DNA from: an uncultured delta proteobacterium
GTDB lineage: Bacteria; Desulfobacterota; Binatia; Binatales; Binataceae
Reading direction: 5' to 3'
Assembly: GCA_963724765.1 (NCBI GenBank)
Contig: CAVRVY010000003.1
Span: forward strand, 864,001 to 928,000
Length of the DNA stretch: 64,000 bases
In this document: positions 27,775-43,956 of the stretch, one piece after another
Numbering within the stretch: position 1 is the first letter of the stretch
Layout: the number at the start of each line of letters is the position of its first letter
Notes under the pieces: generated by a model
What the model was told of the DNA's origin: nothing
Database searches by the model: none
What the model saw: only the letters and a program-made list of their open reading frames with translations
Position numbers and translations under genes: made by a program

Positions 27775-27963
27775 TGAGCCTACCTCGCTCTCCAGGCTCA
27801 GCGCGTCGCGGCTCTTTTTGAGAGCGCGTTCCGGATAGCCCAATTCCCATAAAAGGCAGGCGGCCAAACAGCGGGACGCAACCCCGGCGTCGAAACCATA
27901 GACGAAAGCCTGAGAGCGATGTTGCCGCGCATCATAGAGGGCGATGGCTCGCTCACAATGCTC
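27775..27963 (-). pseudogene. Fragment of the TPR region of a cyclase/ATPase/TPR gene
   Basis: EHCERAIALYDARQHRSQAFVYGFDAGVASRCLAACLLWELGYPERAL aligns by eye with EHLDYVIANHD...TLWIQGYPDQAL of 29483..32806. Confidence 0.75.
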
Positions 27964-28044
27964 ACTCCTGGCCGTGCTATGAAGCGCCTCGCTCGCTCGT
28001 AAGCGAGCCGACTCTGGTTGCGATGCGAACCAGACCCGGATTTT

Positions 28045-28914
28045 TCATTTCTTCGAGAGCCTCATTAGGCAGTATTGAAGACCTCCGTCCGCTAAAGCCT
28101 GCTGCATCAGCGCATGCGCCCGTATGGACGAATGGCATCGCACCCCTCCGTCCGGCGCCGGGCTCTTCTCACGTATCTCCGCTTCAATCAGCTCTTTCGT
28201 CGTGGCCCAGAAGTGCTTCGTCCGTTGAGAGATATCGTGAACCGAATCTACTTGGAAATCTGCTTGCTCCGCGAAGTCAAAATACTCCGGTATCGTGCCT
28301 ATTCGTGTGTGCCAGTAACTGTTGAACGCAGTCTCGTATTCCGGACGACCAAGAAAGCAGTCGGCAATCAACACATGACCTTTGGCTCGTAACAGTGAAG
28401 CGAGTCGCACGAACCATTTCCTACGCTCGAGGTGGCACGAGCTATCTATTGCCACAGCAGCATCGAAGCGGTCTTCACCCGGTACCGCGAGCGCGTCACA
28501 AAGAAGTGGCCGTATTCGCGAAGCAACCCCGGCCTGTGCCGCGAAACGCACTACCCAATCCACATGGGATGCAACACAGGTGTTCGCAGTTACACGTGCG
28601 CCGAACTGTTCTGCCCAAAAAATTGCGCCCCCGCCAAATCCACAGCCAACATCCAGCACTTCACCCGTGAGAGTCGGCGATGCATCCCAAGCATCTACTG
28701 CACAGTAGAGCAGACGCTCCTGTGCAGCGACAAGTCTTCGTCTCAAGTCGAGACGTGACAATTCGGGTGGGGGAGCATCATCCATCAGACCAGTGTGGTA
28801 GTGCACGCGCGGCCCCGGACCGTAGCGCTCGAGGATCGACTTGGTCTTAGAATGATAGTAACTTGTGACGTCTTGAAGGCTTGGAGTATAAGTCTCCATA
28901 TAACGCTGCATCAA
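28045..28914 (-). CDS. SAM-dependent methyltransferase (GPP-/sterol-/tocopherol C-methyltransferase-like)
   Basis: YY..K....RYGPGPRVHYHTG, VLDVGCGFGGG, FDAAVAIDSSCHL; start uncertain (28914, 28911 or 28899). Confidence 0.8.
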   Translation of the reverse strand: MMQRYMETYTPSLQDVTSYYHSKTKSILERYGPGPRVHYHTGLMDDAPPPELSRLDLRRRLVAAQERLLYCAVDAWDASPTLTGEVLDVGCGFGGGAIFWAEQFGARVTANTCVASHVDWVVRFAAQAGVASRIRPLLCDALAVPGEDRFDAAVAIDSSCHLERRKWFVRLASLLRAKGHVLIADCFLGRPEYETAFNSYWHTRIGTIPEYFDFAEQADFQVDSVHDISQRTKHFWATTKELIEAEIREKSPAPDGGVRCHSSIRAHALMQQALADGGLQYCLMRLSKK

Positions 28915-29043
28915 GGCTGAGATCTTAGGTCGAAGCCAATCTCAGCATGCCTTAGTGTTGGGCAATAACTGGAGAGCGCAAGATCTTTTAACCAACACTA
29001 TTCAGAAGCCGCTTTTTTAAAGAATGCTGAAGCCCCGCATTGA

Positions 29044-29439
29044 CTATAGACTATCTGATCCCCACAAGAAGAGCAGTTTCCAACTTCCTGATGCTTTCGT
29101 AAACAAGAAGAAATACCTGATCGTGTCTGAGCCGTTGTCGTCCGACCAGTTGGCAAGGCCACAAACTGATCCGAGGTTCTCATCGATAGTTTCGGCCTGT
29201 GGCAGAGGATTAAATATAGGATTATCCTTGACCTCTTGCCGAAGAAAATCCATGACATTACTTATTCCTAAGACCAACTCTTTAGAGTCTGGATGACTAA
29301 CCCTTTTGAGAACGACATAATGATCAAGCAAAGATTCGACGTTGTCCCAGTCACGCTCGTTGAAGTAAAGTCGTGCCAAATCAAAAGTTTGCTTCAGAGT
29401 GGTGCTGCCCTCCAAATGCATTTGCCATTTAGAATCCAT
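29044..29439 (-). CDS. Hypothetical protein, NTF2/SnoaL-like pattern
   Basis: Strong AGGAGG RBS; FNERDWDNVESLL...G...V..FL and terminal YFFLFTK.SGSWKL strands. Confidence 0.7.
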   Translation of the reverse strand: MDSKWQMHLEGSTTLKQTFDLARLYFNERDWDNVESLLDHYVVLKRVSHPDSKELVLGISNVMDFLRQEVKDNPIFNPLPQAETIDENLGSVCGLANWSDDNGSDTIRYFFLFTKASGSWKLLFLWGSDSL

Positions 29440-29482
29440 TGTTCCCTCCTTGAGCTTCTCTTAGAAAGGTTTTCCAAACCGC

Positions 29483-32400
29483 TCAACGGAACTCAAGTGA
29501 TGACGACTCCATCAACATCTTACTTTCCATCAGATCCGGCGTATGAAACCCTTCTGTAAAAGACCGGTAGATCTCAGCCATTTTTCGCTGAGCTTCAGCA
29601 CCCCTGCCCTGCTTTTCATGGAATCGGCAAAGGCTAAGTGCAGCCCGCAACTCCAGGGACTTGGCGTTTTGGCGAGATGCAATACTAATGGCCTGATTAA
29701 AAAGAGCTTCGGCCTGTTCCTGTCTCTCGGACCTTGCGGGTTGATCCTCGGATAAGCCGATGATTAGTTCTGCTTTGAGTCGACACATCTCGGATTCCCA
29801 CCAACGCTCTTGAGTTCGGGCTACGATTTTTTGAGCCTCGGCTAACGCGACCAATCCCTGTTCAGCTTGGCCTGCTCTTCCGTGGGCCTCCGACGCGAGC
29901 GCAAGAAAATAGGGGACCATAACCTCGGCACCTGTGGCGCGGAAAGCGAACAAGCCTTTTCGAACTTGCTCAATACCGTCGTCGAGGATTCCTCGTTGAG
30001 TCAGCGCCCAACCCCGCATCACCAATCCCCAAGATCGCCAGTACTCAAACTCGTTCTCCGTCGATATTTTGATCGCGGCTTCGGCATGTTCTTGGGTTGC
30101 TGGGGCGTCTCGGCACAGCTGAAGGACCATTGCTCCAAAGCTCAAGGCTGCCGCCAAGCTGTAGGGGTGAGATAGCTTTCGCGCGAGCGCGACAGCCTGC
30201 GCGCTCTTATCGAGCGCCTGATCCGGGTAGCCTTGTATCCATAAAGTCCAAGCGGCTTGTGAAAGACACACTACTTTCGGGTCCTGGCCGAAGGCCAGCG
30301 AACCACACTGCGAAGAGTCGTGGTTTGCGATCACATAGTCGAGATGCTCCATGGCCGGAACAAACTCCGCGAGAGCTGTCAATGTAACTCCAAGTGCATG
30401 ATGCGCCTCCACTAGGAAAAAAGGGTCCTGAGCTGATTTAGCCAGGCTAAGGCACTCGTCAGCCAGCTCGCGAGCGGTTCCGTGTTCCGCCCTCGCGGTA
30501 TAAAAGACCCACAATCCCCACAACACGGGAAAAAGCTGAGGCGCCTGTCCCAACTGCTGACAAAGCTCGCGCGCTCGACCATAAGCTCTACCAACTTCAG
30601 GAGAGGCAAACCCCTTAATAGCTATTACGGGTGTACCTAGCACTAATTGAAGTGCGAGTTCTTGCTGTAGCCGTTCCGGCCTTTCAGGAAGAGCCTTGAT
30701 TAGCTCCAGGCCCTTGGCGAGATGACTTACCGCCTCAGCATTTGCGGATCTTTGAATAGCTTTTTCACCAGCTAGTTTCCAGTAAGGTATCGCATCTTCG
30801 GCGAGATCGGCTTCGGTGTAATGATGAGCGAGAAGCTGAGGCTGGCCTTCTACCAGCGCCGAGTAGTGCGTCCTTAGTTCGACGGCAATCCGCCGGTGAT
30901 AGGTTCGCCGTTTGCTCCGCAATAGGGATTCATAGGCAGCTTCTTGGATCAGCGTATGTCTGAATCTGTAGCTCGCTTCTGGGGGAATCCCCTGTTCGAG
31001 CAGCAGTTCGGCATTCGCTAGTCTGCTTAGCGCTGAATCGAGCTGTTGCTCCTCGACTTCAGCGATCGCACTGAGCAGTTCCCAAGAGAACTCATGCCCT
31101 ATTACGGAGGCTATCTGCGCGATTTCTCTCGCTTCTCCCAGGCGATCCAATCGTGCCATCAATGAGTCACGTAACGTTGCCGGAATCTCGTGCAATGCCG
31201 GGCTCGCGTCGCCCCCCTCGACCATAGTTCGGATCAATTCTTCGACGAACAGCGGCACCCCGCCGCTGCGTTCGATGACAGCTTCGATCGTGTCAGCCGG
31301 CAGCGAAGTGTTTGCTGTCATCAAAGTCGCCATGTCGCGCGCATTACGTGCGTTCAGACGATTCAGGGTCAGTTGGGCATGATGTGCTCGCATGGGCCAA
31401 GGCGGACGAAATTCCGGGCGAGCGGTGCAGATCAGAAGCAGTGGGGCCATCGCGTTCTGCTCAACTAACAGCTGGACAGCTTCCAGCGTAGAGGGGTCGG
31501 CCCAATGGAGGTCCTCGACTTCGATCACCAACGGTTGAATTCGTGCGGTCCCGATCGCCCAACTCGCGATTGTTGCCAGCAATCGCTTGCGCTGTTGTTC
31601 TGGTGGCTTTTGCGGCGGGGTGTATGTCGATGGAACCGCAATGTTCATGAGCGGCGCAATCAGCGGAACTGCCTCGTCGAGCTTGACGCCCGCTAATTTG
31701 AGCGATGCCTCGAGACCGGAGATTCGTTCTTCGGCCGTTTGCTGGCCTCGCCATCGAAACGCCTGCTGCAGCATATCCTCGATCGTATAGAAGGGAGTGT
31801 TCTGATGTAGCGATACTGCAGCAGATTCAACCCAAGTATGTCGGGTATTTGCAATCAGCTCGCGGAAGCGCTGAACCAGGCGTGACTTTCCGATTCCCGC
31901 TTCGCCTACGATCAGTACAGTTTGTCCTTCTCCTTCACGGGCCTGCTCCCAGCGATTCATTAGGAGACGCAATTCGTCTTCGCGCCCGATAAATGGTGTT
32001 AGACCGTGTTCCGCTGCGGCCGCGAGTCGGCCCCGCACTCCACTTGGCTGGACAACTCGGTACAAATGCAACGGATGATCGATGCCCTTTAGTAGCTTTG
32101 CTCCCTGATCTTCGACAACGAACAGACCAGAGATAAGACGGTGGACAGTTGCAGTTATAAGGACCGTATTTGGTGCGGCGGCATTCTGCACTCGCGATGC
32201 CGTATTGGGCACCTCGCCAAATACGTTCGCCCCCTTGCTGTTGGTATCGTCTACGACAACGGAACCAGTGTCTATTCCGATCCGTGCCGCGAGTCTGGGA
32301 TAGGACTTGTTCGCAAGCTGTCCATTCAGAGCAGAGACGGCATCCAGGATCGCGAGCCCGGCAAGCACCGCACGTTGCGCATCCTCGTCATGCGCCTGCG

Positions 32401-32806
32401 GATATCCGAAAAAGGCCAGTAAGCCGTCGCCGAGATATTGCGCGACGTATCCTCCGAACCTCGCTACTGATTCCGTCACGCTTCGGTGATAAAAGGTCAG
32501 GACTTCGCGCCAGTCCTCTGGGTCGAGCTTCGCCGCAATCTCGGTCGAGCCGACCAGGTCGCAGAACAGGACCGACAAATGACGCCGCTCGCCCTTGGTC
32601 CTCTGTGGGTAAGGGCTTAAAGGAAGTTCCGGCCCGCCTGCGGGCCGCGGTTGGGCATCGAGCTGAACCCCGCATTCCTCACAGTATTTGGCAGTGGTCC
32701 GATTGGCAGCCCTGCAGGCGGTGCATAGCAATAAAAGAGAAGTCGCGCATTCTACGCAGAACTTCGCATTTTCACGGTTCTCGGAACCACAAGCTGAACA
32801 ACGCAA
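29483..32806 (-). CDS. Double zinc ribbon - class III nucleotide cyclase - AAA ATPase - TPR protein
   Basis: Four CxxC pairs, FCDLVGST and GDG metal aspartates, NTASR, Walker A GEAGIGKS, Walker B EDLHWAD, GVPLFVEE, helical repeats. Confidence 0.92.
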   Translation of the reverse strand: MRCSACGSENRENAKFCVECATSLLLLCTACRAANRTTAKYCEECGVQLDAQPRPAGGPELPLSPYPQRTKGERRHLSVLFCDLVGSTEIAAKLDPEDWREVLTFYHRSVTESVARFGGYVAQYLGDGLLAFFGYPQAHDEDAQRAVLAGLAILDAVSALNGQLANKSYPRLAARIGIDTGSVVVDDTNSKGANVFGEVPNTASRVQNAAAPNTVLITATVHRLISGLFVVEDQGAKLLKGIDHPLHLYRVVQPSGVRGRLAAAAEHGLTPFIGREDELRLLMNRWEQAREGEGQTVLIVGEAGIGKSRLVQRFRELIANTRHTWVESAAVSLHQNTPFYTIEDMLQQAFRWRGQQTAEERISGLEASLKLAGVKLDEAVPLIAPLMNIAVPSTYTPPQKPPEQQRKRLLATIASWAIGTARIQPLVIEVEDLHWADPSTLEAVQLLVEQNAMAPLLLICTARPEFRPPWPMRAHHAQLTLNRLNARNARDMATLMTANTSLPADTIEAVIERSGGVPLFVEELIRTMVEGGDASPALHEIPATLRDSLMARLDRLGEAREIAQIASVIGHEFSWELLSAIAEVEEQQLDSALSRLANAELLLEQGIPPEASYRFRHTLIQEAAYESLLRSKRRTYHRRIAVELRTHYSALVEGQPQLLAHHYTEADLAEDAIPYWKLAGEKAIQRSANAEAVSHLAKGLELIKALPERPERLQQELALQLVLGTPVIAIKGFASPEVGRAYGRARELCQQLGQAPQLFPVLWGLWVFYTARAEHGTARELADECLSLAKSAQDPFFLVEAHHALGVTLTALAEFVPAMEHLDYVIANHDSSQCGSLAFGQDPKVVCLSQAAWTLWIQGYPDQALDKSAQAVALARKLSHPYSLAAALSFGAMVLQLCRDAPATQEHAEAAIKISTENEFEYWRSWGLVMRGWALTQRGILDDGIEQVRKGLFAFRATGAEVMVPYFLALASEAHGRAGQAEQGLVALAEAQKIVARTQERWWESEMCRLKAELIIGLSEDQPARSERQEQAEALFNQAISIASRQNAKSLELRAALSLCRFHEKQGRGAEAQRKMAEIYRSFTEGFHTPDLMESKMLMESSSLEFR

Positions 32807-32827
32807 AGTAGATGCCCTCTCTGCAAC

Positions 32828-32871
32828 TCAGCCGCTGTGTACCATCTTTGCAGGTTAACGGCTATCGCGAG
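32828..32871 (-). promoter_or_regulatory. Conserved bipartite motif, copy 1 (CTCRCGATAGC-N16/17-TGGTACACA)
   Basis: 37/44 identical to 43913..43956; about 20 nt upstream of the cyclase start. Confidence 0.7.
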
Positions 32872-32888
32872 ATGAAGGAGTCTTGCAG

Positions 32889-33080
32889 ATGGACCTAGCA
32901 AAATCGCGGGCGGATAGTCTTGCCGTATTCCCCCGATTTAGCGCGGCCGGAGCCGCTCTCCGGGTCCGTGCGCAATCGAAAATCGCGCCCACACGCGCGC
33001 TTTTCGAACGATTATCCGGTAAGTACCAAAACTGACGGACTGGGTGGTGGATGAGGCAGTCTTGGGCGAACCCTTCTCTG
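32889..33080. repeat. tRNA-end-associated repeat, copy 1, with tRNA-3'-like remnant
   Basis: 28 bp ATGGACCTAGCAAAATCGCGGGCGGATA identical to 44215..44242, then patchy similarity; the minus strand ends in GGTTCG...CCACCA. Confidence 0.7.
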
Positions 33081-33223
33081 GCTATTTTGGCAATTTTGGC
33101 AGAGGAAAACGGCTTCTCGGTGCATACGCAGAACAATGTTTGATAACTTTCGGCGCGCAGATGGGCGCGGTAAGAACGAAGACTGACCGATGCTTCCCGA
33201 CGACGCCCCAGCTTCTTGCGAAA

Positions 33224-33640
33224 CTAGCCCGCATTGCGCGCGACCCAGGCGACGAAGTCGCCCTCGGTTAGGATGCCGACCAAGCGGCCGTCCTTGATTA
33301 CCGGAAGACAACCGATTTTGCGTTCCATCAGCACACGCGCAGCTTCCGCAAGTGGAGTGTCTGGAGTGGTCGTAAGCACGTCGGTGGCCATCACGTCCTT
33401 CACGAACAGTGTGTCCAGCAGTTTGCGTCGGGCGTGCTGCCCATACCCAAGCGCCTGAGCCAGCGCTCCGCGAAAGAGATCGCGCTGGCTCACGATTCCG
33501 ACTACTTCTTTGCCATCATCGTCCAAAACCGGGAGATGCCGGATCCGTCCGAGATTCATCACGTCGTCGGCGAGCGTCAGTTTCTCGTTGCGCTGCAGCG
33601 TGGTCACATCCGGTGTCATCACATCTTTGACTCGTGTCAC
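33224..33640 (-). CDS. CBS-domain pair protein
   Basis: VKDVM..., IRHLPV, VGIVSQRD, IGCLPV, LVGILTEGD. Confidence 0.92.
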   Translation of the reverse strand: MTRVKDVMTPDVTTLQRNEKLTLADDVMNLGRIRHLPVLDDDGKEVVGIVSQRDLFRGALAQALGYGQHARRKLLDTLFVKDVMATDVLTTTPDTPLAEAARVLMERKIGCLPVIKDGRLVGILTEGDFVAWVARNAG

Positions 33641-33989
33641 TTCTTTCGCCCTCGGCTCCGTGCAGTAGCAGATAATTTCGATTGCGATGTAAGCTTATCG
33701 CGCTTGAGAACGAGATTCGCACTGCCCCGATCATGTTCCGGTCCGCGTCGTGCTCGGAGCGGATGCGTCATTCGCTCCTTCTACCTCTACCGCAGTGAGT
33801 CCGCCTTGGTGATTTAGAGATTCCGGTTTAGCGCGGCCTTGACCTGAACCCACTATAGGTCATATACGCGCCTAGAATAAGAGCAATAGCGAAGTACCAG
33901 TAGAAAAGCTGTTCGAACTGAATCGCCCTGAAGAGCCCGACGACAGTGATTGGAGACAGAAGCAGGAGGAGCAGACCGCACGGATCAGC

Positions 33990-34250
33990 ATCGACCACCT
34001 TACGAACTCGGCCTCCGCGTGTCGCCGCGCACGATCCGGAAATATTTGCCAAAGTTGCTGGCGGCACCACAATCATCCTTGGGGCCCGGCCTGCCCGATC
34101 CGCCCCTGATTTTCTGCATTTGCAACGCCAGAGGCATCGCTTCGACCGATCAAGCCGATTGTGGCGCAGTCCGTCCTCAACGGATTTCACCACGAATATA
34201 GCCTCCTGGCCCGCGCTGCATGAGTGTCGTAGAGTTTTTGCGGACGACAG
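33990..34250. mobile_element. Transposase remnant
   Basis: + strand ELGLRVSPRTIRKYLPK resembles the HTH of integrase-core transposases; no complete ORF. Confidence 0.4.
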
Positions 34251-34292
34251 TTGAGCTCCAAGTTCTGACCAGCGCCAGCGCAATACGCGATT

Positions 34293-35126
34293 TCAACACT
34301 TTGGCGGTCCATCGCGGATCAAACCACGAACTATTTCGAGAGGGCATTGCGAGAGGCCGAACGTCTCTACCCACCAAGTTGCCCCCGCTGTGGCGTACGC
34401 GGTCACGATTTCGTGGCTTCTTTGCGAGCCTGCGATGCTCCCTAGTTGAACGACGTCGAAGGGCGACTCAGTCGTTCTTAATCGCTTTATGTAGTTGGAC
34501 AGCTCAGCAAGCTGACTGGGAGTAATCGAATGAGCAAAATCACCCGCCACGGGAACGACTCCATCGAAACGAGCGGCTCGCTGCAAGGGAAGTTTTCTTG
34601 GCCACGTTCCAGCTACCCAAATTGGAATTCGAGGAGACTGGAAGGTTCTCGGCATGAATTGCGCCCCATTCACACGGTAGTACTGGCCAACGAATGAAAA
34701 CGTCTCTCCGGTCCATAAGCCGGTAAGTACGGCAAGGCCCTCGTCCAACATCTGCGCTCGGACCCTGTCCTCAAGCGGACCGCCGAAGGTGGTGATTTCT
34801 CCGAAAACATCGCTTCCAGAGCCGACCCCTAAAATGAATCGTCCCTGCGACAAGTGGTCGAGCGTAACGGTCTCCCGTGCGAGCTTCCATGGATTGCGGC
34901 GGAACAGCGGTGTAACAAGTGTTCCGAAACGGATTCGTGTCGTAGTCAACGCGATCGCCGCTAGGACTATCCAAGGATCGGCGGTTGGCGCTGCCTGCTC
35001 AAATTGTAAATGGTCCCAAACGAAGCAACCGTCCCAGCCAGCGTTTTCGGCTTCCCGCGCGAGTTCCGCGAGAAGACGCGGATCGCTATATTGACCGGAT
35101 AACGGAAAATCGATCGCGAACTGCAT
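34293..35126 (-). CDS. LLM-class flavin-dependent oxidoreductase
   Basis: AENAGWDGCFVWDH, DPWIVLAAIA, TLDHLSQGRFILGVGSG. Confidence 0.9.
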   Translation of the reverse strand: MQFAIDFPLSGQYSDPRLLAELAREAENAGWDGCFVWDHLQFEQAAPTADPWIVLAAIALTTTRIRFGTLVTPLFRRNPWKLARETVTLDHLSQGRFILGVGSGSDVFGEITTFGGPLEDRVRAQMLDEGLAVLTGLWTGETFSFVGQYYRVNGAQFMPRTFQSPRIPIWVAGTWPRKLPLQRAARFDGVVPVAGDFAHSITPSQLAELSNYIKRLRTTESPFDVVQLGSIAGSQRSHEIVTAYATAGATWWVETFGLSQCPLEIVRGLIRDGPPKC

Positions 35127-35301
35127 TTCGCCCAGATTCCGTCTAACCTATCGTCAGACATCTCCCATAGCGTTTCGCTCGATCCAAACGCAGCTATGTC
35201 CAATTACACATTCAAGCTATACCGCCAGAGCAAGATTATCATAAACGAAGTACCTCACTGCTCTTGGCGATATTTAACTCACAGTCTATTTGCATTATTT
35301 T

Positions 35302-36645
35302 TCAGATCGCAGGCGCTATGTTTTGGTTAACCTTGAAGAAATTGTCGGGATCGAAGGTACCCTTGATCTTCGATAGCCGATGATATTTATCTCCATAGGC
35401 GGCGCGCACTCGATCCTCGCCCTCATTTTCCAGGTCATTCACATATACCGCACCGGTTGATAGAGGTTCGATCGCGCTAAAGAATCTCTCGACCCACGTC
35501 CACGAGCTCTCACGCTCGTTGGCTTTTCGCCAATAGGAATGGATCCAGAATTCAAATCCGGTGCGTCGAAAACCAAATGCATTGTCGTGAGGCTTAGCGC
35601 ACCACGGTCCATGCCAGTACATCATAGTGATACCGCTCGCTTCGTGGGGCGCATTCGAAGCATGATCTGTGATGACATCGATAATACTTTCGGTAATCCT
35701 TTTGAAGTGACCCGCACGCCGATGACTAGAGTACTCGCCCTCTGGCACGTCGTAGCCGCCTCTCTGCTCATCGAGATAGGCTTTCTGTTTTATCGTATCC
35801 TCAAATGGTCGCAAGTAAGTGCGAAGGGGGTGTAGCAATCGTTCCCCTTTTTCCTTTTTGCCCATCCACACGACTTTGACGTCCAGCATCCGCTCGCCGG
35901 GGTGCGGCAGCACAGCTGCAATCAGGAATAACTCGGATGGAATTGTTGGTGCGAAGGCGTTGAGAAAACGCAGGACCTTTTTGGCCTGCCGAATCGGATA
36001 TCTAAGGCTGCCTGACAAAACAGTTTTGATGGGATGTAGCTGGAATTCGAGCAAAGTAGCGATACCGATATTCGCTCCTGCGCCACGCATCGCCCAGAAC
36101 AAATCGGGATTCGTCTTTGCTGTGGCCGTTAAGACCTTCCCATCCGAGGTCACCACTTCGAGACCGACGATGCTATCGCATGCATAGCCGAACTTCGGCG
36201 TGAGGGAACTTTCACCTCCGCCTAGGGAATACCCTGCCACGCCAACGGTCGGACATGAGCCGAGTGGTATTGCCATTTCGAACGACTGCGTAAGACAATC
36301 CAGCTCGCCCGCGAGGATCCCCGGCTCAATAACAATTGTCCCGTAAGCGGGATCGATCCGCACGCGCTTCATAGGCGATAGATCGATGACCATTCCATCA
36401 TCGCATACACCGTGCCCCGCGAAACTGTGGCCACCTGATCGAACCGCGGTGAGCAGAGTTTTTTCACGAGCAAATTCAACAGCTAGTTGGACGTCTTTCC
36501 GGTTAGCACATCTCACAATGATCGCAGGCCGTTTGTTGACCGCGCGATTCTTGACCTGGCGTAGGTGGACGTACTTCCTGTCGCGCGGCAGGACTAGCTC
36601 GCCGGTTAGGGACTTCGCAAAGCTAGTGATGGCGGAAATGGTCAT
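35302..36645 (-). CDS. FAD-linked oxidase, berberine-bridge-enzyme-like
   Basis: VRSGGHS, GSCPTVGVAG..LGGG, DLFWAMRGAG, YVND, DPDNFF. Confidence 0.9.
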   Translation of the reverse strand: MTISAITSFAKSLTGELVLPRDRKYVHLRQVKNRAVNKRPAIIVRCANRKDVQLAVEFAREKTLLTAVRSGGHSFAGHGVCDDGMVIDLSPMKRVRIDPAYGTIVIEPGILAGELDCLTQSFEMAIPLGSCPTVGVAGYSLGGGESSLTPKFGYACDSIVGLEVVTSDGKVLTATAKTNPDLFWAMRGAGANIGIATLLEFQLHPIKTVLSGSLRYPIRQAKKVLRFLNAFAPTIPSELFLIAAVLPHPGERMLDVKVVWMGKKEKGERLLHPLRTYLRPFEDTIKQKAYLDEQRGGYDVPEGEYSSHRRAGHFKRITESIIDVITDHASNAPHEASGITMMYWHGPWCAKPHDNAFGFRRTGFEFWIHSYWRKANERESSWTWVERFFSAIEPLSTGAVYVNDLENEGEDRVRAAYGDKYHRLSKIKGTFDPDNFFKVNQNIAPAI

Positions 36646-37039
36646 CGAACACCTACTGGCATCGCGCTTCGAGTTTCGGGAAGTCTGCTCATCGACAAGA
36701 GACGCTCATTGCTGAAGAGTTAGCGGCAGGATATCTCCTTCAGCGGTCTGTGCAGTTTTCCTACCCTCTCTCCTCATCTGCTTCTGAATGTCCGATTTTG
36801 TCGCGCACCTTCACAATCGCGTCACGCCGGACGAGTTCCTAACAGCCAAACTAATCGACGCTAACGAGCGACGAGCCTCATTGCGCGCTCGCGTTTCCTC
36901 ACTTAACATCAATCCATCGAGCTAAGCGAGGCGTTCGATGCGAGCTTTGAAAAGAGACGCAAATTTACCGCAGCACGCTCCCGTCTGCGTGCTCGGAGAA
37001 TCATACTGACCGGAGCTGAAAGCGTGGCTGAGGACGACG

Positions 37040-37345
37040 CTAGTTTCGGAGCCGTGCTGTGGGACGCGCCCTGACGTAGAGCCCGACAGCCAGGTACAAA
37101 ATTTCCTGCGCAGACCAATTTCCAAGACTCGTTCTTGAAGAATTCCGGGAGTTTTCGCGCGATGGAATGACGGCAACAGGCTGAATCTGCGGATTTTCGG
37201 TTGTGGGAACTGTCTTCGCCGTCTTGTAGTTCTCGGCTTCTCTCATTCGCAAGAGCGCATAGCTGAACGGCTCATTTGGGATTGTGACGGCACTCTGGTA
37301 AGGATGCGCCCATACTAGAATCGCAAGAATCGTTACTCCCAGCAT
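37040..37345 (-). CDS. Hypothetical protein with hydrophobic N-terminus
   Basis: ORF only; starts just outside the IS3 end. Confidence 0.3.
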   Translation of the reverse strand: MLGVTILAILVWAHPYQSAVTIPNEPFSYALLRMREAENYKTAKTVPTTENPQIQPVAVIPSRENSRNSSRTSLGNWSAQEILYLAVGLYVRARPTARLRN

Positions 37346-37442
37346 GATAGAAAGAAAACGCGCACATCGCCGCCTGCTGGCGTGCGCCCCTAAAACTCAG
37401 CCAATTTTGAGGTAGAGTCCGTCGACTGAAAAGAGACGGGCG

Positions 37443-37709
37443 ATGAAAGGAAGCCGGTTCAGCGAGGAGCAAATCATCGGGGTGTTGCGTGAGCACGAGG
37501 CAGGGGCGAAGACCGAAGAGGTATGCCGGCGCCACGGGATCTCAAGCGCGACACTTTACAAGTGGAAATCGAAGTACGGTGGGCTTGAGGTATCGGAGGC
37601 ACGCCGCCTCAAGGCTCTGGAGGACGAAAACCGGTGCTTAAAGCGGCTGCTGGCCGAATCGATGCTGGACAATGCGGCGCTCAAGGACCTACTCGGAAAA
37701 AACGTCTGA
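37443..37709 (+). CDS. IS3-family transposase OrfA
   Basis: SRFSEEQIIGVLREHEAG, CRRHGIS.AT.YKWKSKYGG. Confidence 0.92.
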   Translation: MKGSRFSEEQIIGVLREHEAGAKTEEVCRRHGISSATLYKWKSKYGGLEVSEARRLKALEDENRCLKRLLAESMLDNAALKDLLGKNV

Positions 37710-38444
37710 AGCCTGCGGCGCAAAGACTGGCGGTGAACAAAGTGACGGAGCGCCACGGGCTGGAGTCAGCGACACGCCTGCCGACTGGCAGGGATGGATC
37801 GTTCGACCCGACGCTACCAAGGCAAGCGACCGGACGACTCGGCGCTTCGACAGCGGCTGCGAGAGCTCGCCGCGGAGCGCCGCCGATTCGGGTATCGGCG
37901 CTTAGGCTGGATGCTGCTCGCGAAGGTCATGTGATGAACCACAAGCGCCTCTACCGGCTGTACCGCGAAGAGCGGCTCATGGTGCGCAGGCGCGGCCGGC
38001 GCAAACGAGCGTTGGGAACCCGGGCACCGATACTGTTGCCGCACGCGATCAACCAACGCTGGTCGCTCAACTTCGTGTCCGACACGCTGCGTGATAGGCG
38101 ACGCTTCCGCATCCTGGGTGGTGGACGACTTCAGCCGCGAGTGCCTGGCAACCGTGGTCGATACGTCGCTAGGAGGAGTGCGGGTGGTGCGCGCGAGCTG
38201 GAACGGCTGGCGACCGAGCGCGCGGTGCCCCAAGAGATGATTAGCGATAACGGAACCGAACTCACCACGTGTTGCTCAGTCTCACCGAGGCAGCCAGATC
38301 ATCGAAGCGTGGCGCTACGACTACAATCACCTCCGCCCGCACGGCAGCCTCGGAGCCTTGACCCCAAACGAGTTCGCGGTGCTTAAAGGACAGGAAACAC
38401 AACCGCCCCAGGAGGGCGAAATTAACCGCGGTCTCTACTTATGA
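37710..38444 (+). pseudogene. IS3-family OrfB remnant
   Basis: RRFGYRRL, NHKRLYRLYREE, NQRWSLNFVSD and SDNGTE in shifting frames. Confidence 0.85.
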
Positions 38445-38724
38445 ACGGCGGGAAGTTGGGGTGCACGCCACAGCGACTCTAAATCAAACTTAGCAACGCC
38501 AGTTTAGTTGCATGACTTGAGGTGGTAATTCCTGCCGACACCTATCGCCCGAATTACTTTCAAGAGGTTTAGGGTTTCGCCTACTACAAAAAAGCCCAGT
38601 TCCAAAGGATTATCGCACCGCAGGGTCTAAGTTTTGTATCGTAACAGGCGCAATCACTAGATGCGCGACGCGCGTTGTAGCGAAAGCGTTCCGCGACTTC
38701 TTCAGCCGCGGACTATTTTCATCA

Positions 38725-38934
38725 TTAGGAGTTCCTACGCTTCCTACGCTGGTCTCCTGTCATGGGTCTGTCATCTTCTTCGGGCTTGCCTCCTGTCTTA
38801 GCGATTTCGACTTCGTCCTGAGCGATTTCTTGCGCCGGCTGATTGGTCTTGATGGCAACCCGGACCACTCGTCCAGCTTTTTCTTCACGATCATTCGCTT
38901 TCGCGCGGCCGGGAGCTTTCACTCTATTAGTCAT
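38725..38934 (-). CDS. Small charged hypothetical protein
   Basis: AAGGAG RBS upstream of ATG; 69 aa. Confidence 0.5.
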   Translation of the reverse strand: MTNRVKAPGRAKANDREEKAGRVVRVAIKTNQPAQEIAQDEVEIAKTGGKPEEDDRPMTGDQRRKRRNS

Positions 38935-39035
38935 GTACTAGTACTCCTTCTGCTCGCTAGATTTGCAATCCAGTTCTTAGCGTTGAACCGCTTCGGTACG
39001 TAAACAGATTCTATCGCGAGCCGAAGCAGCTGTAT

Positions 39036-39182
39036 TTACAGACGTCCGCTGAGGAGCATAACGATCAGAACGATTAGGATGATTCCGCCAATCCCAATTC
39101 CTCCATAGGGTCCATACGCATAATAACCACCCCCTCCGCCAAAGAGAAGAAGCAAGATTAGAATCAGTACCAAAGGTGACAT
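39036..39182 (-). CDS. DUF3309-like small membrane protein (48 aa, absent from the ORF track)
   Basis: MSPLVLILILLLLFGGGGGYYAYGPYGGIGIGGIILIVLIVMLLSGRL; GGGAG RBS. Confidence 0.8.
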   Translation of the reverse strand: MSPLVLILILLLLFGGGGGYYAYGPYGGIGIGGIILIVLIVMLLSGRL

Positions 39183-39481
39183 AACAGTCTCCCTATAAAG
39201 CTCGACAAATTGGAGAAACGTTCTGCATCAAACGCACCGTCTCGGCCTTATACTCTTCCGAGAACCTCCACCGTCTGCCGCCTCGCCCTTGCTCCATTGC
39301 TCACTTCTATCGCCCCTACTTTCGCGCTTTCGGAATGTCCTTCAAACCGGGGGGCATGGCCCTCTACCCGTTCATCCTCTTAACCGCACCGGAATTCAGC
39401 TATGGCGATAGTCTATTTCCTTGTCGCGCAGTATACCGTAGAGCAACCCGAATGCCGGGACGAGACTGCTATGATCGAGAC

Positions 39482-40654
39482 TCACGCTTGTTTCAGTTGT
39501 TCGTGCACGCGAGGCAAGACGCGCTTCCCATAGAATTCGATCACCCGCCTTTGATCGGACTGGCCGGAATGGACGTTTACGATAGTCGCACCGGCGTTGA
39601 ATAGGTCGACCAGCGCTTTTACATGAACATCAGGATCAGTGCTTACTGGCCATTTGCTGTAAATCTGTTGCAGCGGAAGCTCGGAGGCCGCTCGCTTTTC
39701 AATCTCTTGCTGGTCGCGAATGTTAAAGTAACTTCTGAAGGCTTTAGGTAAGAATCGCCATAGTTTGGCCGAAGTCTCCGCATCCTTCTCGTCGCCCACC
39801 ACCACAAACTGCTCTACCAGCACCGGCATTTGCCGAGAGTCTTTGCCTGCAGCTTTCGCGCCGTTCTCGAAGTCCGCCTTGTGCTGCTTCCAAGTATCCG
39901 GATCGGTGATAAGTCCGTCGCCATACTGCCCGGAACGACGCATCGCTTTCGGCCCTACATTCGCCGCCATCAGGAGAGGAATTTGTTCTGCAGGCGGATC
40001 GTATAATTTCGCATTGACGTCGTAATACTTGCCGCGGTGAATCACCTGCTCTCCGGTCCACATCCGGCGTATGACTTCTGATGCTTCAACCAGCCGCTCT
40101 GAGCGTTCGGGCCATTTTGGCCACGATCCTGTCGCTGCTTGCTCATTCAATGCCTCACCCGAGCCGATACCCAGAAATATTCGTCCCGGATAAAGCAAAC
40201 TCAATGAGGCAAAAGCTTCAGCAACAACGGCAGGATTGTAGCGGAGGGTCGGGCAAGTCACCGTCGGTCCAATCCAGACGCGGCGGGTACGTTGGCCGAG
40301 CGCGCTCATAGTAACCCAGGCTTGTCCCGCGTGGCGCTCGTTAGATTGCCAGGGTTGAAGATGATCGCTGGTAGCTAGGAGATCGAACCCAGCCTGCTCA
40401 GCGGCCACTCCTAACTCTACAAGGTCAGTAACGGGAAATTGCTCGTGAGCTAGCATGAAGCCCACCATACTTTTATTTATGGCACAAGTGGTGCCTCGGG
40501 GTCCGGATGAGAGGGACGAACCAGTAGACATATTTGAAGCAAATGCCGGCGTTGTGGACGCGAGCGCTGAGGTACCGGCGATTAGGCCGGCAGCTTTCAG
40601 CAGAGTGCGTCGAGTTGGGTCGCCTAAACTCCTTTCAGTTTTGGACAATTTCAT
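39482..40654 (-). CDS. Fgd-like F420-dependent dehydrogenase with Tat signal
   Basis: AHEQF, SDHLQPW, VTCPTLRYNPA, GSGEALNE; N-terminal TRRTLLK..AFA. Confidence 0.85.
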   Translation of the reverse strand: MKLSKTERSLGDPTRRTLLKAAGLIAGTSALASTTPAFASNMSTGSSLSSGPRGTTCAINKSMVGFMLAHEQFPVTDLVELGVAAEQAGFDLLATSDHLQPWQSNERHAGQAWVTMSALGQRTRRVWIGPTVTCPTLRYNPAVVAEAFASLSLLYPGRIFLGIGSGEALNEQAATGSWPKWPERSERLVEASEVIRRMWTGEQVIHRGKYYDVNAKLYDPPAEQIPLLMAANVGPKAMRRSGQYGDGLITDPDTWKQHKADFENGAKAAGKDSRQMPVLVEQFVVVGDEKDAETSAKLWRFLPKAFRSYFNIRDQQEIEKRAASELPLQQIYSKWPVSTDPDVHVKALVDLFNAGATIVNVHSGQSDQRRVIEFYGKRVLPRVHEQLKQA

Positions 40655-40739
40655 TTGATCGCCTTTATACGCGCTGCTTACAGATATTTTCTCTGAAGCC
40701 CGATTTAAGGTGCGGGAATTTGCACGAGCTCCTTCGCCT

Positions 40740-40950
40740 GTGGGGGACTGATCGGTATGAATCGTGGCGAGGGGACGAGGTGGATCGTTGTCACTGTCGG
40801 GTCCAGTGTTCACGTTGAGTGTCACGAGCTGCGCGAGCCTGACCTGGGGTCCACGACCTTGACGTTAAACTCCAGCGCCACGTTGGGGGGCACCAGAATG
40901 TGCTTAGCGACGAGAATCTTGCCGCCGGGCTACCATCCAAGGCGCGATCT
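40740..40950 (-). pseudogene. Possible multicopper-oxidase domain fragment
   Basis: Frameshifted ALDG.P...HILVPP...EF...AQLVTLNVNTGPDSDNDPPRPLATI, recognised by eye. Confidence 0.35.
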
Positions 40951-41453
40951 TAGCGGCGATAATTACAGTCGCTCCAGGAGGCTATTTTTGGCAGGCGGCG
41001 CGGCGGCAGCCATAATGACGTTCGTAAAGCCAATTTTGTGCCATGGCTACAGCTTTTGATGACCAGGGTTGAACGTTCTTAAATGCTCCAAGGCATGAAA
41101 AAATGCTTGTCCAAGCCCTCTGGTTATCACGCGACATGGAGGGTCTTACAATGACCTCTGTAATCATTCCATCGGCCGTACCTGTCGAACAATCGATATG
41201 TAGCAGCAAATGATGTACGTCTCTTTAACGACGAGAGCCTGAGGTTGCCACTACAAAGGCAACTCTGTTTCCGGGCTCGCACTAAAGACTGCTAAAGCAG
41301 ACAGGTCTGCACGGTGTGAGGCGATTGTTGAAGGCCGCCAGCCCCTGGATTTGACCGTCATAGCCCTCACCCGACGGATCGATCTTCCGCTACTCTGGAG
41401 CGCGCAGGAACAGGCGCTCGGTCTCCGCTAGTCACGCCCGTTAGGATCGAGAT

Positions 41454-41750
41454 CTACGTCCGCTCTGAAGCGATTTTCTGAAGCAACGCGGCGAGAGCCT
41501 CCGGCGCCGTGACATGAGGCGAATGGCTGGCGTCGATCTCGTAGTAGCGCCAGCCAGGCTCGTGCCTGGCGCGTTCGGCAAATTGGCGGAAAGGGTCTCC
41601 GGGCGCGACGCGTGTGCAATAGACGAAGCTGCGCGGCAGGACCAGCTCACCGTTGCGCAGCCGCAGCGGCGTCTCGGCGCACTTGACCGATTGTGGCAGA
41701 CGACGAGGCAGAATCCATTTCAGATCCGCCTCGGAGGTGTCCGGCGGGCC
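41454..41750 (-). pseudogene. C-terminal fragment of an alpha/beta hydrolase
   Basis: LPRSFVYCT, GWRYYEIDASHSPHVTAPEALAALL; the nucleophile-containing N-terminal half is missing. Confidence 0.7.
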
Positions 41751-41770
41751 ACCTCTATCTGAACCTTTCT

Positions 41771-41806
41771 CTGTGTACCACTTTGCGACCTGCCTGCTAT
41801 CGTGAG
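41771..41806 (-). promoter_or_regulatory. Conserved bipartite motif, copy 3
   Basis: + strand ctgtgtacca-ctttgcgacctgcct-gctatcgtgag matches both boxes with a spacer 1 nt shorter. Confidence 0.6.
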
Positions 41807-42365
41807 CAACCGGTTTAGCCGCGCCGTACAACGGATCATGCAAGGTCACCGGGATTTCGCGGCCCGTGAGCCTCGCATCGCCACGCTGAACACCGCCCGC
41901 GTAAACTCCTCGATGAACATTGTTTCTCCACCGTGCGCTCGATTACCGCCGCGACGTGCGGCATACGCTTTGCGAATAAAGCGTCCCCGCGGAAGTCATC
42001 CCGCTAACCGGGTTAGTTATCAGCCTGTTCTGCGTCTGGACCACCGGCTATGGTCGGTGCGCGGCCCATGAGGAAGCGGCGCGCCCTCTGATGATCAATG
42101 CTTTGGCGCATCGACTCTTTGGAGCGCGCTCCCGGTTCTGAAGCCCGCTATTCGGCGCAAAATCGAGCGGATACCTGGCAACGCCGCAGCACACCAACCG
42201 ATCGCGGCGCAATTTACGCTATTAAATGGAATTTCCTTCGAATAACAGGAACCGCTTTCAACTTCATTCGATAGCTAGCCTAGGCGATCACGTTCGCACC
42301 TTCCAGCGCGGTTCAAGCTTTGATAAGCTGCCGCGGCACGATATCAAGAAGAGACGACGTCGAGG

Positions 42366-43094
42366 TCACATAGCGTTCTGAAGGATTGGGTCAATTGTCA
42401 TAAGTACCGCCTGAAGTGACCGCAGATGTTCTCCGCGCACTACCTGCGCGGCTTTCTTCCCCCAAAATACGATATCTCGTCTATCTCCCTCCGACATGCT
42501 GGTGTACCGCGGGTCAAAAGAATGGATGTCTTTCGCTATATGTGCCGCTATCCCCGCGTTCATGCCTATTGTTGCCGCTTGATCAGCTAGTTTCGTGCCA
42601 CACCACATGATCTGAAAGTACGCAGACCATTGGCGACCGGTAATACCCTCCGCAACCTCACGGAACAATGCCGCCGTCCAGTGTTTGGTACGCAGTTCAA
42701 CGTGTTGCGGGCCAACGGCTTCGATCAAGTCTTTGACAACTACCGATATTGTCTCTCTCGGAAGATCCGCTCTCAAGAGAGCATGAAAGAACAGGTTCTG
42801 AAGAATGAGCTGCGTACAGGGTCCAAGCCGATTGGGATCGGGAAGATATGTGCATTCGCTATCGCTGAGGTCATCGCACAGGTTGCCAGCACAGAAATTG
42901 AAATAACTAGCCACCGACCGTGCCAATATCGTCTCGGGCGGGAGCCCAGCATCTGCGCCCATTTCATAAAGAACCTCAAGTGGTCCCGGTCTTCCTGCTT
43001 CGAGAGCAGCGAGAAGGTCCGCTTGGCTAACCTCGGGCAGAGACTGTCGAGCCAATATGCGCAGCGCCTCTTGAAAGACCGCTCCTCCACTCAT
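42366..43094 (-). CDS. Class I isoprenoid-synthase-fold protein (ComQ-like prenyltransferase candidate)
   Basis: NLCDDLSDSE (DDxxD), GPQHVEL (GQ..D/E-like), degenerate second motif GIAAHIAKDIHS; all-helical pattern. Confidence 0.65.
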   Translation of the reverse strand: MSGGAVFQEALRILARQSLPEVSQADLLAALEAGRPGPLEVLYEMGADAGLPPETILARSVASYFNFCAGNLCDDLSDSECTYLPDPNRLGPCTQLILQNLFFHALLRADLPRETISVVVKDLIEAVGPQHVELRTKHWTAALFREVAEGITGRQWSAYFQIMWCGTKLADQAATIGMNAGIAAHIAKDIHSFDPRYTSMSEGDRRDIVFWGKKAAQVVRGEHLRSLQAVLMTIDPILQNAM

Positions 43095-43129
43095 AGCCTG
43101 TCACCTGCTCAAAAGGCTTAGATCGCCAT

Positions 43130-43438
43130 TTAACCCTCCATAACAATATTATGAGGGTGACCTGCATTAATGGAATTGATCGCCTTTATAGAGAGCTGCT
43201 CAGTTTGCTGCAAAGCTGCCACGTTAGCCGCATGTCCAGCTGCGATGGTCAGCGTTCCCGGTACATTTCCTTTCACACTGCCTCCGCTTAGTACGTGATA
43301 TACAGCGTCAAACAAAAGTCTCACCGTGGGGTTGACAGCCCTGTCACCCACAGGTCCTTGTAAAAGACCCGAAGCAAGTAGCTGTTGCAGATACGCGATA
43401 CTATCTGCCGAAACTTTGACATCGACCACATTAAACAT
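43130..43438 (-). CDS. Hypothetical 102-aa protein
   Basis: Strong GGGAGG RBS; 35 nt upstream of the DDxxD gene. Confidence 0.75.
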   Translation of the reverse strand: MFNVVDVKVSADSIAYLQQLLASGLLQGPVGDRAVNPTVRLLFDAVYHVLSGGSVKGNVPGTLTIAAGHAANVAALQQTEQLSIKAINSINAGHPHNIVMEG

Positions 43439-43576
43439 GACTATTCCTCCCTTGGTTCCCTAGTATTCAAGGCATTTTGCTAGGCCTACTATAGGCTGAA
43501 GTTCACGCTCGTTGACTGGTTGTACTCGTTTTGTGGTACCACTGCTATCTCATCGGATAGTCTTCATAGAGTTATC

Positions 43577-43900
43577 TTAGTGACGATTCTCAACATCGAG
43601 ATTTGCAGCTATCCTCGTCGAGCCTACTAGATCACGGAACAGGACAGATAAATCACCCTCGGTAGTCTGAGAGTCGAGCGCGGCTGAGCTGTTTGGCTCT
43701 GGAGAAGCATGCCGCCTGTTTGCTCGGCTTAGCGGTGCCGCACCGAGCGGAACGACGCAGTCGTCGCAGGACGTGGCGGTCATCCGAATCGCTGCCGCGC
43801 AGCCAGGACACCGCACTAGGAGGGAACCTGAGCACTTAGCACAAAACTTCGCCGTCTCGTGATTCTCAGAACCAAAACCCGCGCAACGCACCGTATACAT
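43577..43900 (-). pseudogene. Truncated zinc ribbon - cyclase gene, paralog of 29483..32806
   Basis: RCAGFGSENHETAKFCAKC...LSVLFRDLVGSTRIAANLD then stop; one cysteine lost. Confidence 0.85.
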
Positions 43901-43912
43901 GCGTCCGTCTAA

Positions 43913-43956
43913 TCAGCCGTTGTGTACCATGTTTACGACCTAACGGCTATCGCGAG
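43913..43956 (-). promoter_or_regulatory. Conserved bipartite motif, copy 2
   Basis: 37/44 identical to 32828..32871; same position relative to the cyclase start. Confidence 0.7.

Follow-up and report, generated by a model that had tools for sequence, protein, structure and literature searches.

Related operons of soil bacteria suggest a possible, undescribed lipid or lipopeptide signalling system

Why should a long cyclase/ATPase protein share its operon with enzymes of isoprenoid chemistry? The question is posed by two gene cassettes, all on the minus strand, in a 64,000-nucleotide stretch of DNA (hereafter the window) from an uncultured delta proteobacterium of the family Binataceae (assembly GCA_963724765.1, contig CAVRVY010000003.1, positions 864,001 to 928,000). 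The two cassettes are cargo variants of one operon frame, in which a cyclase/ATPase gene is combined with variable cargo genes and with a methyltransferase of the BezA type. In cassette A the cargo is an NTF2-like protein, and in cassette B it is a small protein, X, together with an enzyme of isoprenoid-synthase fold, Q. Operons of this type are modular and patchily distributed in soil bacteria, and the related operons, taken together, suggest an undescribed lipid or lipopeptide signalling system.

Two cassettes and one operon frame

An earlier reading of the same DNA (the original prediction) had described two minus-strand cassettes of like layout, and open reading frame (ORF) listing and family scans recovered each of their elements. 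Cassette A opens with an intact gene for an 1107-aa protein (29483-32806), which comprises DZR, Guanylate_cyc and AAA_16 domains and a helical-repeat C-terminus. Its middle gene encodes a 131-aa protein that is probably NTF2/SnoaL-like (29044-29439), placed by a hidden Markov model (HMM) family and by Atlas features, and its last gene a 289-aa homologue of the BezA-type prenyl-diphosphate C-methyltransferases (28045-28914; Methyltransf_25, CMAS). Cassette B opens with a truncated cyclase gene of 107 codons (43577-43900), whose product consists of the zinc ribbon (DZR, E 1.1e-6) and the first cyclase strand. The product shares 49% identity with residues 1-98 of the 1107-aa protein (E 1e-22), which bears out its description as a paralogue, and no more cyclase-like sequence follows. 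Next come X, of 102 aa (43130-43438), a candidate prenyl acceptor or precursor, and Q, of 242 aa (42366-43094), a candidate peptide prenyltransferase with the fold of the trans-type enzymes that make isoprenyl diphosphates (trans-IDS). Both X and Q retain all the residues that are invariant in their families, and no remnant of a methyltransferase was found after Q. Cassette B is thus a decayed cyclase-X-Q-methyltransferase operon that has lost about 1000 cyclase codons and the whole methyltransferase; it matches the variant found at loci L019, L120, L132 and L201. A third cyclase fragment, also foreseen, lies at 27790-27990 (minus strand). Over 57 aa this remnant of ∼67 codons shares 44% identity with residues 820-874 of the 1107-aa protein (E 1.6e-5), and it fits the tandem arrays of such genes at loci L023, L073, L123 and L126.

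The linkage of these genes was surveyed from both ends of the frame. On the Q side, 74 genome loci encoding Q homologues were compared, from Myxococcota, 'Deltaproteobacteria' metagenome-assembled genomes (MAGs) and some Actinomycetota. A shared neighbourhood of Q and methyltransferase homologues was the test set beforehand, and at 36 of the 74 loci Q is indeed followed directly, on the same strand and in one operon, by a methyltransferase homologue; seven of the 74 have less than 900 nt of downstream sequence. An X-like ORF accompanies Q at 67 loci (61 in the first HMM round). Its distance upstream of Q is at most 450 nt at 13 loci and 1.3-2.1 kb at 49; at five it is placed elsewhere, and at seven it was not found, four of these having too little upstream sequence to reach the position that X normally occupies. 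In 48 of the 49 wider gaps the space is filled by a gene for a polytopic HATPase_c kinase of 450 aa, with at least four hydrophobic segments in its first 190 residues. A homologue of the long cyclase is present at seven of the 74 loci, co-directional and directly upstream of X-Q at four (L019, L023, L073 and L079) and divergent at three (L021, L022 and L074).

The kinase-type operon, with X, the polytopic kinase, Q and often the methyltransferase, is found in many Myxococcus, Corallococcus, Pyxidicoccus, Hyalangium, Archangium and Vitiosangium genomes (loci L024-L092, e.g. L025:8158-11604). The X-Q pair stands alone in Sorangium (L052) and at the Actinomycetota MAG loci L080, L082, L084 and L090; at a further Actinomycetota MAG locus, L079, the cyclase is upstream. 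Two records are probably mislabelled or contaminated, namely L021 ('MAG: Klebsiella pneumoniae'), which groups with the 'Deltaproteobacteria' MAGs, and L026 ('Comamonas sp. KCTC 72670'), which groups with Myxococcus.

On the methyltransferase side, a metagenome scan gave 80 loci. After 27 distant ones (25-31% identity, no partners) had been left out, 53 were counted, with methyltransferase identities of 34-66%. The cyclase gene lies upstream on the same strand at 18 of these, leading the operon as had been predicted, and elsewhere at five. The NTF2-like gene is directly upstream of the methyltransferase at 24 and elsewhere at three; Q is upstream at six, of which two have the cyclase and X, three have X and the kinase, and one is cut. 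Among 300 other species-representative genomes of the host's class, 13 encode the methyltransferase, a count that includes one unpublished genome. At all 12 of the class-level loci examined a cyclase homologue lies within 1.5 kb of it, with the NTF2-like gene at eight and Q at two. The middle genes therefore vary, as the original prediction had it. The cyclase-NTF2-methyltransferase set also occurs at other chromosomal sites in two genomes of the same genus, and sequence nearly identical to cassette A is present in soil, peat and sediment metagenomes from several studies.

A second set, with identities of 69, 34 and 64% to cassette A, is found in the same genome ∼220 kb away. It lies outside the window (L115:5032-8282, the host's own contig C3:669-672 kb) in another stretch of lower GC. 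Its cyclase has been reduced to 523 aa by an internal deletion, in frame, across which residue ∼445 is followed by the last ∼50 residues, its methyltransferase is without the last ∼17 residues, and some 2.5 kb beyond the set there are fragments similar to the FAD/BBE oxidase of the island described below.

It had been proposed that the two cassettes might be halves or variants of one module. They are variants, with two types of cargo, and cassette B is a decayed copy rather than a half. We rejected the idea that an insertion had split a Q-methyltransferase pair into two cassettes, because the cyclase-NTF2-methyltransferase order is conserved in its own right.

A quick maximum likelihood tree was made from 82 methyltransferase sequences, comprising every match that reached 230 aa and leaving out nine metagenome fragments below that length; its supports are provisional, the careful search being incomplete. 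All cyclase-linked rows, with either cargo, fall into one group of 32 rows (SH-aLRT 94). This is sister to a clade of 28 rows (99) with the X-kinase-Q-methyltransferase order of Myxococcaceae and Archangiaceae, the join having a support of 98. Within the cyclase-linked group the X-Q cargo appears in at least two places, and L132 pairs with the NTF2-type L130 at 100.

The encoded proteins

The methyltransferase is a class I S-adenosylmethionine (SAM) methyltransferase by Pfam. When it was searched with phmmer against all PDB sequences, the sole strong matches, both nearly full length, were BezA (7fbh, E 6.4e-52, query residues 14-286) and C6-FPP-MT (9tb4, E 6.8e-51, residues 16-268). A profile of 16 family members scored these two at 4.8e-85 and 9.2e-84, as against 1e-18 to 2e-20 for the geranyl diphosphate (GPP) 2-C-methyltransferases. 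The expectation of a GPP-type enzyme was right as to the kind of enzyme, for which BezA/C6 type is the better name. BezA, of the benzastatin pathway, is reported to make 6-methyl-GPP (PMC10881772). C6-FPP-MT, which belongs to C16 homosesquiterpene pathways, is reported to methylate farnesyl diphosphate (FPP) at C6, with Glu165 as the base and with Phe243 and Trp244 stacking on the double bond of the substrate (PMC12929941). The SAM motif and the stacking pair are kept, the latter as F235-W236, invariant in all 16 aligned sequences. Where C6-FPP-MT has Glu165, the window protein and its closest relatives have an aspartate (Asp157), still acidic but with a shorter side chain, and the myxobacterial homologues have Glu. 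At the chain-length gate, as read from the alignment, Trp210 of BezA and Ile205 of C6-FPP-MT are replaced by Phe197; the effect of W210A on the gate of BezA is described in PMC10881772. The gene neighbourhoods also differ, since in place of a canonical terpene cyclase, a P450 or an aromatic prenyltransferase the window protein and its relatives have a cyclase/ATPase and an NTF2-like protein or X and Q. Judged by its sequence, the protein is a relative of the BezA/C6 prenyl-diphosphate methyltransferases, and its substrate is presumably of the same class.

Neither Q nor X has a match in Pfam or NCBIfam at E ≤0.01. Homologues of Q form 99 clusters, nearly all of 242 aa, with no name and no Pfam domain among them. 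In an alignment of 37 homologues (A2) the first aspartate-rich motif, D74-D75-x-x-D78, is invariant in all 37, and the second region is degenerate, a DxxxxD pattern (D189-x4-D194-P-R196). The AlphaFold2 model of Q, built with the 37 homologues aligned, has a pLDDT of 96.7 and a pTM of 0.92. Foldseek matched the model to FPP and geranylgeranyl diphosphate (GGPP) synthases, an archaeal isoprenoid synthase and MoeN5, with TM scores of 0.59-0.77 and a probability of 1.0 among the best 49 of the 99 matches at E ≤0.001. The predicted structure thus places Q in the isoprenoid-synthase fold, as the DDxxD motif had led the original prediction to expect.

Homologues of X form 157 clusters, all annotated as hypothetical. 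An alignment of the window protein with 36 of its 57 near-full-length matches (A3) divides it into a conserved domain of ∼90 aa and a variable tail of 6-10 residues, with entropies of 1.93 and 2.62 bits, respectively. The AlphaFold2 model shows an alpha/beta domain (pLDDT 85) and a C-terminal tail with values below 66, predicted to be disordered. Most tails read G-[FY]YLTATL, CTLSTTV, DILSATV or VVVTAV. Because a conserved domain is joined to a variable tail that is predicted to be disordered, X looks like a precursor. A predicted complex of Q and X, made with A2 and A3, scored 0.11 with a mark at 0.32 and counts neither way on binding.

The 131-aa protein of cassette A has no Pfam match of its own. 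An HMM family seeded with it has 29 members, among them relatives that exceed the cut-offs of NTF2-clan families (L121, DUF4440, 32 bits against 25.2; L119, SnoaL_2, 30.3 against 27), and the Atlas feature search put the protein itself among clusters of ketosteroid-isomerase/SnoaL-like proteins (0.96). The NTF2-like gene is always far less conserved than its neighbours, with identities of 27-40% compared with 53-69% for both of them. In four metagenome cassettes a gene of the CrtC/Lipocalin_9 type (carotenoid hydratase-like) lies between the NTF2-like gene and the methyltransferase (L127:1959-2990, L128:2896-4011, L130:1193-2311 and L135:2910-3980).

The original prediction had called the 1107-aa protein a cyclase-ATPase-TPR protein and, at another point, a cyclic-nucleotide receptor. 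The zinc ribbon, cyclase and ATPase are well matched in Pfam (DZR E 2e-8, Guanylate_cyc 1.1e-18, AAA_16 1.4e-24); TPR_12 reached only 17 bits (E 0.0064), under its cut-off, and with this match and the alignment to the C-terminal part of TIGR03903 given below as its basis the TPR label is weakly supported. When the cyclase domain was aligned to CyaB (3r5g), both metal-binding aspartates, the asparagine and the arginine were found to be kept, and for that reason the domain looks competent. The protein would then be a maker of cyclic nucleotide and not its receptor. At the purine-specifying position a glutamine replaces the lysine of adenylate cyclases. Rv0386-type mycobacterial cyclases, which are cyclase-ATPase multidomain regulators, also have glutamine at this position.

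Over residues 62-1059 the protein aligns to the cyclase/ATPase/C-terminal part of TIGR03903, the 'TOMM system kinase/cyclase fusion protein', with which it shares a class III cyclase, AAA_16 and an extended helical C-terminus. The match is confined to model positions 273-1264, and the score of 542.5 bits is below the cut-off of 705.75. The protein is not a member of this family, as it has an N-terminal double zinc ribbon where the family has its kinase, and no kinase or DNA-binding domain. Large proteins of the TIGR03903 type are reported to accompany Burkholderia ribosomal-peptide clusters (PMC2887384); here the linked genes encode isoprenoid enzymes and not cyclodehydratases. The host genome has two more zinc-ribbon/cyclase/ATPase paralogues of 32-35% identity and host-like GC content at third codon positions (C4:531814-535149 and C4:544120-547424), one of which is split into two ORFs.

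Upstream motif and island setting

The two cassettes had been said to share an upstream motif, and this is real. It is 44 nt long, and its copies, 22 nt upstream of the start codon of cassette A (32828-32871) and 13 nt upstream of that of cassette B (43913-43956), are identical at 37 of 44 positions. Allowing up to 10 substitutions, the 5.4-Mb genome has no further copy, and the motif was absent from the homologous loci compared at that stage. It holds a 7-bp inverted repeat, AGCCGTT / AGCGGCT, which is kept across a U-G to U-A change. The hairpin predicted in both copies did not rise above shuffled sequences (z -1.8 and -0.9), no RNA family was found around the motif at E ≤1, and promoter and terminator scans gave results at chance level.

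A longer repeat lies close by. One copy, at 32889-33016, includes a perfect 28-mer (32889-32916), and a second copy occupies 44215-44343 (28-mer 44215-44242). By BLAST, pieces of this dispersed repeat, ∼130-280 nt in length, occur at at least five other sites in the genome, not beside cyclase genes (C1:602684-602958, C1:607121, C1:610241-610424, C3:80248-80356 and C3:139705-139787). We had considered the 28-mer as a signal specific to the cassettes, and this was rejected because it is part of the dispersed repeat. The 28-mer is nearly invariant among copies and the repeat has no Rfam match; a miniature inverted-repeat transposable element, a regulatory region and an RNA are the candidates for what it is.

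Both cassettes lie in a low-GC island (window 27.8-44.4 kb), with the 67-codon cyclase remnant at its left edge and tRNA-Ala(CGC) (44374-44447, minus strand; Rfam 66.9 bits, ARAGORN) at its right boundary. This tRNA was the sole Rfam match in the window at gathering score. The GC content is 51-57% from 28 to 44 kb, compared with ∼65% in the flanks. The flanking genes themselves (SDR and GalU/DksA) are found at 77-90% DNA identity in all 16 genomes of the same genus that were compared, and none of the island genes was found in four stretches around the conserved flanks in three of these. Both flanks are on a single stretch only in genome G001, where they are ∼7 kb apart. Q was found in none of 60 related genomes (16 of the same genus, 20 of the same family and 24 of the same class). 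The part of the window from 27.8 to 44.4 kb is thus a horizontally acquired, partly decayed genomic island; a search of it found no integrase and no att repeat, including repeats of the 3' half of the tRNA. Partial direct repeats of that 3' half do occur in three relatives within the genus (G002, G004 and G006), at 3.5, 8.4 and 40 kb from the tRNA. As a result the tRNA-Ala site looks like an integration hotspot, which suggests that different islands have integrated at tRNA-Ala(CGC) within the genus.

The middle of the island (33224-41849) also holds stretches without long ORFs. By Pfam and NCBIfam its genes, all treated here as intervening ones, encode on the minus strand a CBS pair protein (33224-33640), two luciferase-like (LLM) oxidoreductases (34293-35126 and 39482-40825) and a FAD/BBE oxidase (35302-36645). 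There are also an ORF without a family match (41454-41849, minus strand) and, on the plus strand, the remnant of an IS3 transposase (37634-38386). The CBS pair gene is directly upstream of the promoter region of cassette A and on the same strand; tblastn detected no homologue of it beside the cyclase in the 74 genome and 53 metagenome loci.

A possible lipid signal and its rivals

What, then, might join these genes? The closest parallels are ComQXPA of Bacillus and PalPXQ of Paenibacillus alvei. In the latter, PalP (a kinase), PalX (a precursor) and PalQ (an isoprenoid-fold prenyltransferase) form one cluster, as reported in PMC10853753. The likeness lies in the combination, in one operon, of a precursor with a variable tail, an isoprenoid-fold prenyltransferase and a membrane histidine kinase; in the X-kinase-Q order at 48 of the 74 loci; and in a Q whose first aspartate motif is kept and whose second is degenerate. 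The differences are that no similarity to the known families could be detected in the sequences of Q and X, that 66 of 67 X tails are without tryptophan, that the BezA-type methyltransferase is attached at nearly half of the Q loci, that in the lineage of the window a soluble cyclase/ATPase protein replaces the kinase, and that the hosts are those named above and not Bacillota. The original remark that no described system with this layout was known does not extend to these related layouts. Our literature search found no description of the operons or of the X and Q families (the supplementary networks of the PalQ study could contain Q), no methyltransferase of this clade beside cyclase/ATPase genes, and no ComQXP-like system in Myxococcota.

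All the trans-IDS-like peptide prenyltransferases so far characterised are reported to act on tryptophan, and in the ComQ/PalQ-type enzymes the second aspartate-rich motif is said to be repurposed, with a glutamine just before it in common (PMC13290415). With ComQ, PalQ and the P domain of ChrPC, Q shares the predicted fold, the first motif, the degenerate second motif and an adjacent precursor gene; it is set apart from them by the missing glutamine, the missing tryptophan acceptor and the lack of membership by sequence. Given that both the acceptor and the glutamine are missing, Q may work like these enzymes, and we do not file it as a member of their group. If Q prenylates X, then with a tryptophan in only one of the 67 tails the acceptor residue would be a new one.

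From the gene orders, their recurrence, the folds and the enzyme homology we infer substrates, an acceptor, a sensed ligand and a role as follows. From GPP or FPP the methyltransferase would make a prenyl diphosphate that carries an added C-methyl group. Q, in the X-Q variant, would move a prenyl or methylprenyl group onto the variable C-terminal tail of X, and prenylated X would be a lipidated peptide like ComX or PalX; in the NTF2 variant, the small protein would bind or convert the methylated prenyl compound. With its repeat domain the cyclase protein would detect either the product or the small protein once loaded, and would then oligomerise, and oligomerisation would activate the cyclase, for which dimerisation is needed, to make a cyclic nucleotide. 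In myxobacteria the polytopic histidine kinase of the same operon would take the place of the cyclase protein. We hold this joint mechanism of methylated-prenyl supply, transfer or binding, and sensing by cyclase or kinase tentatively, at somewhat less than an even chance. A more specific version makes the lipid a self-made signal. In it the role of receptor falls to the cyclase/STAND protein, both X and the NTF2-like protein are cargoes that are loaded or modified with the methylprenyl group, the loaded cargo is the ligand of the repeat domain, and the myxobacterial kinase responds to a secreted peptide prenylated at a residue other than tryptophan. This version we consider doubtful.

A number of observations weigh against the joint mechanism. 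Q shows no sequence-level match to the polyprenyl_synt or ComQ families, its profile found a single PDB entry, 4lfe, at E 1.1, and its best structural matches are chain-elongating synthases and not peptide transferases; as noted, alignment A2 shows no glutamine before the second motif. For X, no NHLP or Nif11 leader was recognised in Pfam or NCBIfam, the model found nothing in the PDB by Foldseek at E ≤0.001, the Atlas gave no usable match, and the single tryptophan among 67 tails also counts here. The sensor family is a generic one, since the neighbours of the two C4 paralogues are unrelated to the cassettes. Partners are absent at 19 of the 53 metagenome loci, of which six have less than 300 nt of upstream sequence and 13 have distant methyltransferases (34-50% identical). 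Among the genes searched by similarity, none for a transporter, a leader protease, a response regulator or a protein that binds cyclic nucleotides was conspicuous by its recurrence, the annotation of neighbours being partial. Finally, within the window cassette B has neither sensor nor methyltransferase, and cassette A has no prenyltransferase.

The operons might instead be plain, small biosynthetic ones for C-methylated terpenoids, with Q a minimal terpene synthase or another enzyme that converts prenyl diphosphates, the NTF2-like protein an enzyme that cyclises, isomerises or hydrolyses the methylated prenyl diphosphate, X an accessory protein or chaperone, and the cyclase/ATPase a regulator responding to an unrelated cue. 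BezA and C6-FPP-MT are reported to act in small-molecule terpenoid pathways (PMC10881772, PMC12929941), a hydratase-like CrtC/Lipocalin_9 gene is inserted at four loci, the nearest structures to Q are prenyl diphosphate synthases and MoeN5, and nearly all X tails lack the only acceptor known for such enzymes. Against this stands the pairing of Q, at 67 of 74 loci, with a protein that has a conserved domain and a variable tail. At 48 loci, moreover, a polytopic sensor kinase is wedged between the two, as in PalPXQ, and neither the tight pairing nor the position of the kinase is explained by a terpenoid pathway. Q also has no recognisable second metal-binding motif of terpene synthases on our reading of A2. 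We judge a plain terpenoid operon to be unlikely.

A conflict or anti-phage module, in which the repeat domain of the STAND protein senses an invader, a Pycsar-like cyclic nucleotide is made, and the enzymes are effectors or makers of toxic or protective lipids, is quite improbable. Some features would suit such a module: a STAND-type ATPase, a tRNA-linked island with a patchy distribution, tandem and decayed copies, and a fast-diverging middle gene. In PADLOC the cyclase domain does match the PycC models, to which it is homologous; the best score, 62.7 bits, is no better than the 67.9 bits of the generic Pfam cyclase, and the other five island proteins in the scan matched no Pycsar model, so that the system is not assigned to Pycsar. 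PADLOC likewise gave no match for the NTF2-like protein, Q or X, and for the methyltransferase only the mad2 methyltransferase domain (E 3.8e-10). Unlike in Pycsar, no cyclic-nucleotide-dependent effector gene lies beside the cassettes, cyclase and STAND ATPase are parts of one protein, and the partner genes encode biosynthetic enzymes of secondary-metabolite families; in addition, the kinase version is widely conserved on the chromosomes of Myxococcaceae and Archangiaceae. It is slightly less probable still that the window genes are rearrangement debris of a decaying island and that here the two cassettes do not work together. The truncated cyclase, the 67-codon remnant and the IS3 fragment speak for debris, as do the failure to find an integrase, an att repeat or a methyltransferase remnant after Q and the fact that the upstream 28-mer belongs to a dispersed repeat. 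Against it, cassette A is intact and its order of three genes recurs at many independent loci; X and Q keep their family-invariant residues, and they still follow the conserved 44-nt motif and start region. Pure debris may be the right description of cassette B in this genome, and its decay has no bearing on the reality of the operon family.

We return to a methylated-prenyl supply coupled to a sensing protein as our preferred reading, and to what the operons may mean. Peptide prenylation by enzymes of the isoprenoid fold is known for tryptophan alone, from a handful of Bacillota, a Chloroflexus homologue and the ChrPC P domain. The X-Q pairs constitute a sizeable unnamed family, in which a C6-type prenyl-diphosphate methyltransferase is a frequent companion. 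Prenylation of X by Q would, if it occurs, amount to new acceptor chemistry and would give a peptide that carries a methyl-branched lipid. With NTF2-like and CrtC-like genes as its neighbours, the methyltransferase clade is likely to be a marker of unexplored non-canonical terpenoid chemistry. The cyclase-led version of the operon offers a concrete candidate ligand for the very common and poorly understood cyclase-ATPase-repeat proteins.

The kinase version is present in many genomes of Myxococcus, Archangium, Hyalangium and Sorangium, where cell-cell signalling is a long-standing question and where genetics is available in some. If the lipid is indeed a signal, these Gram-negative social bacteria would possess a pheromone system like that of ComX, and the operons as a whole would represent a new class of signalling modules built on isoprenoids, in which the cargo can be exchanged.

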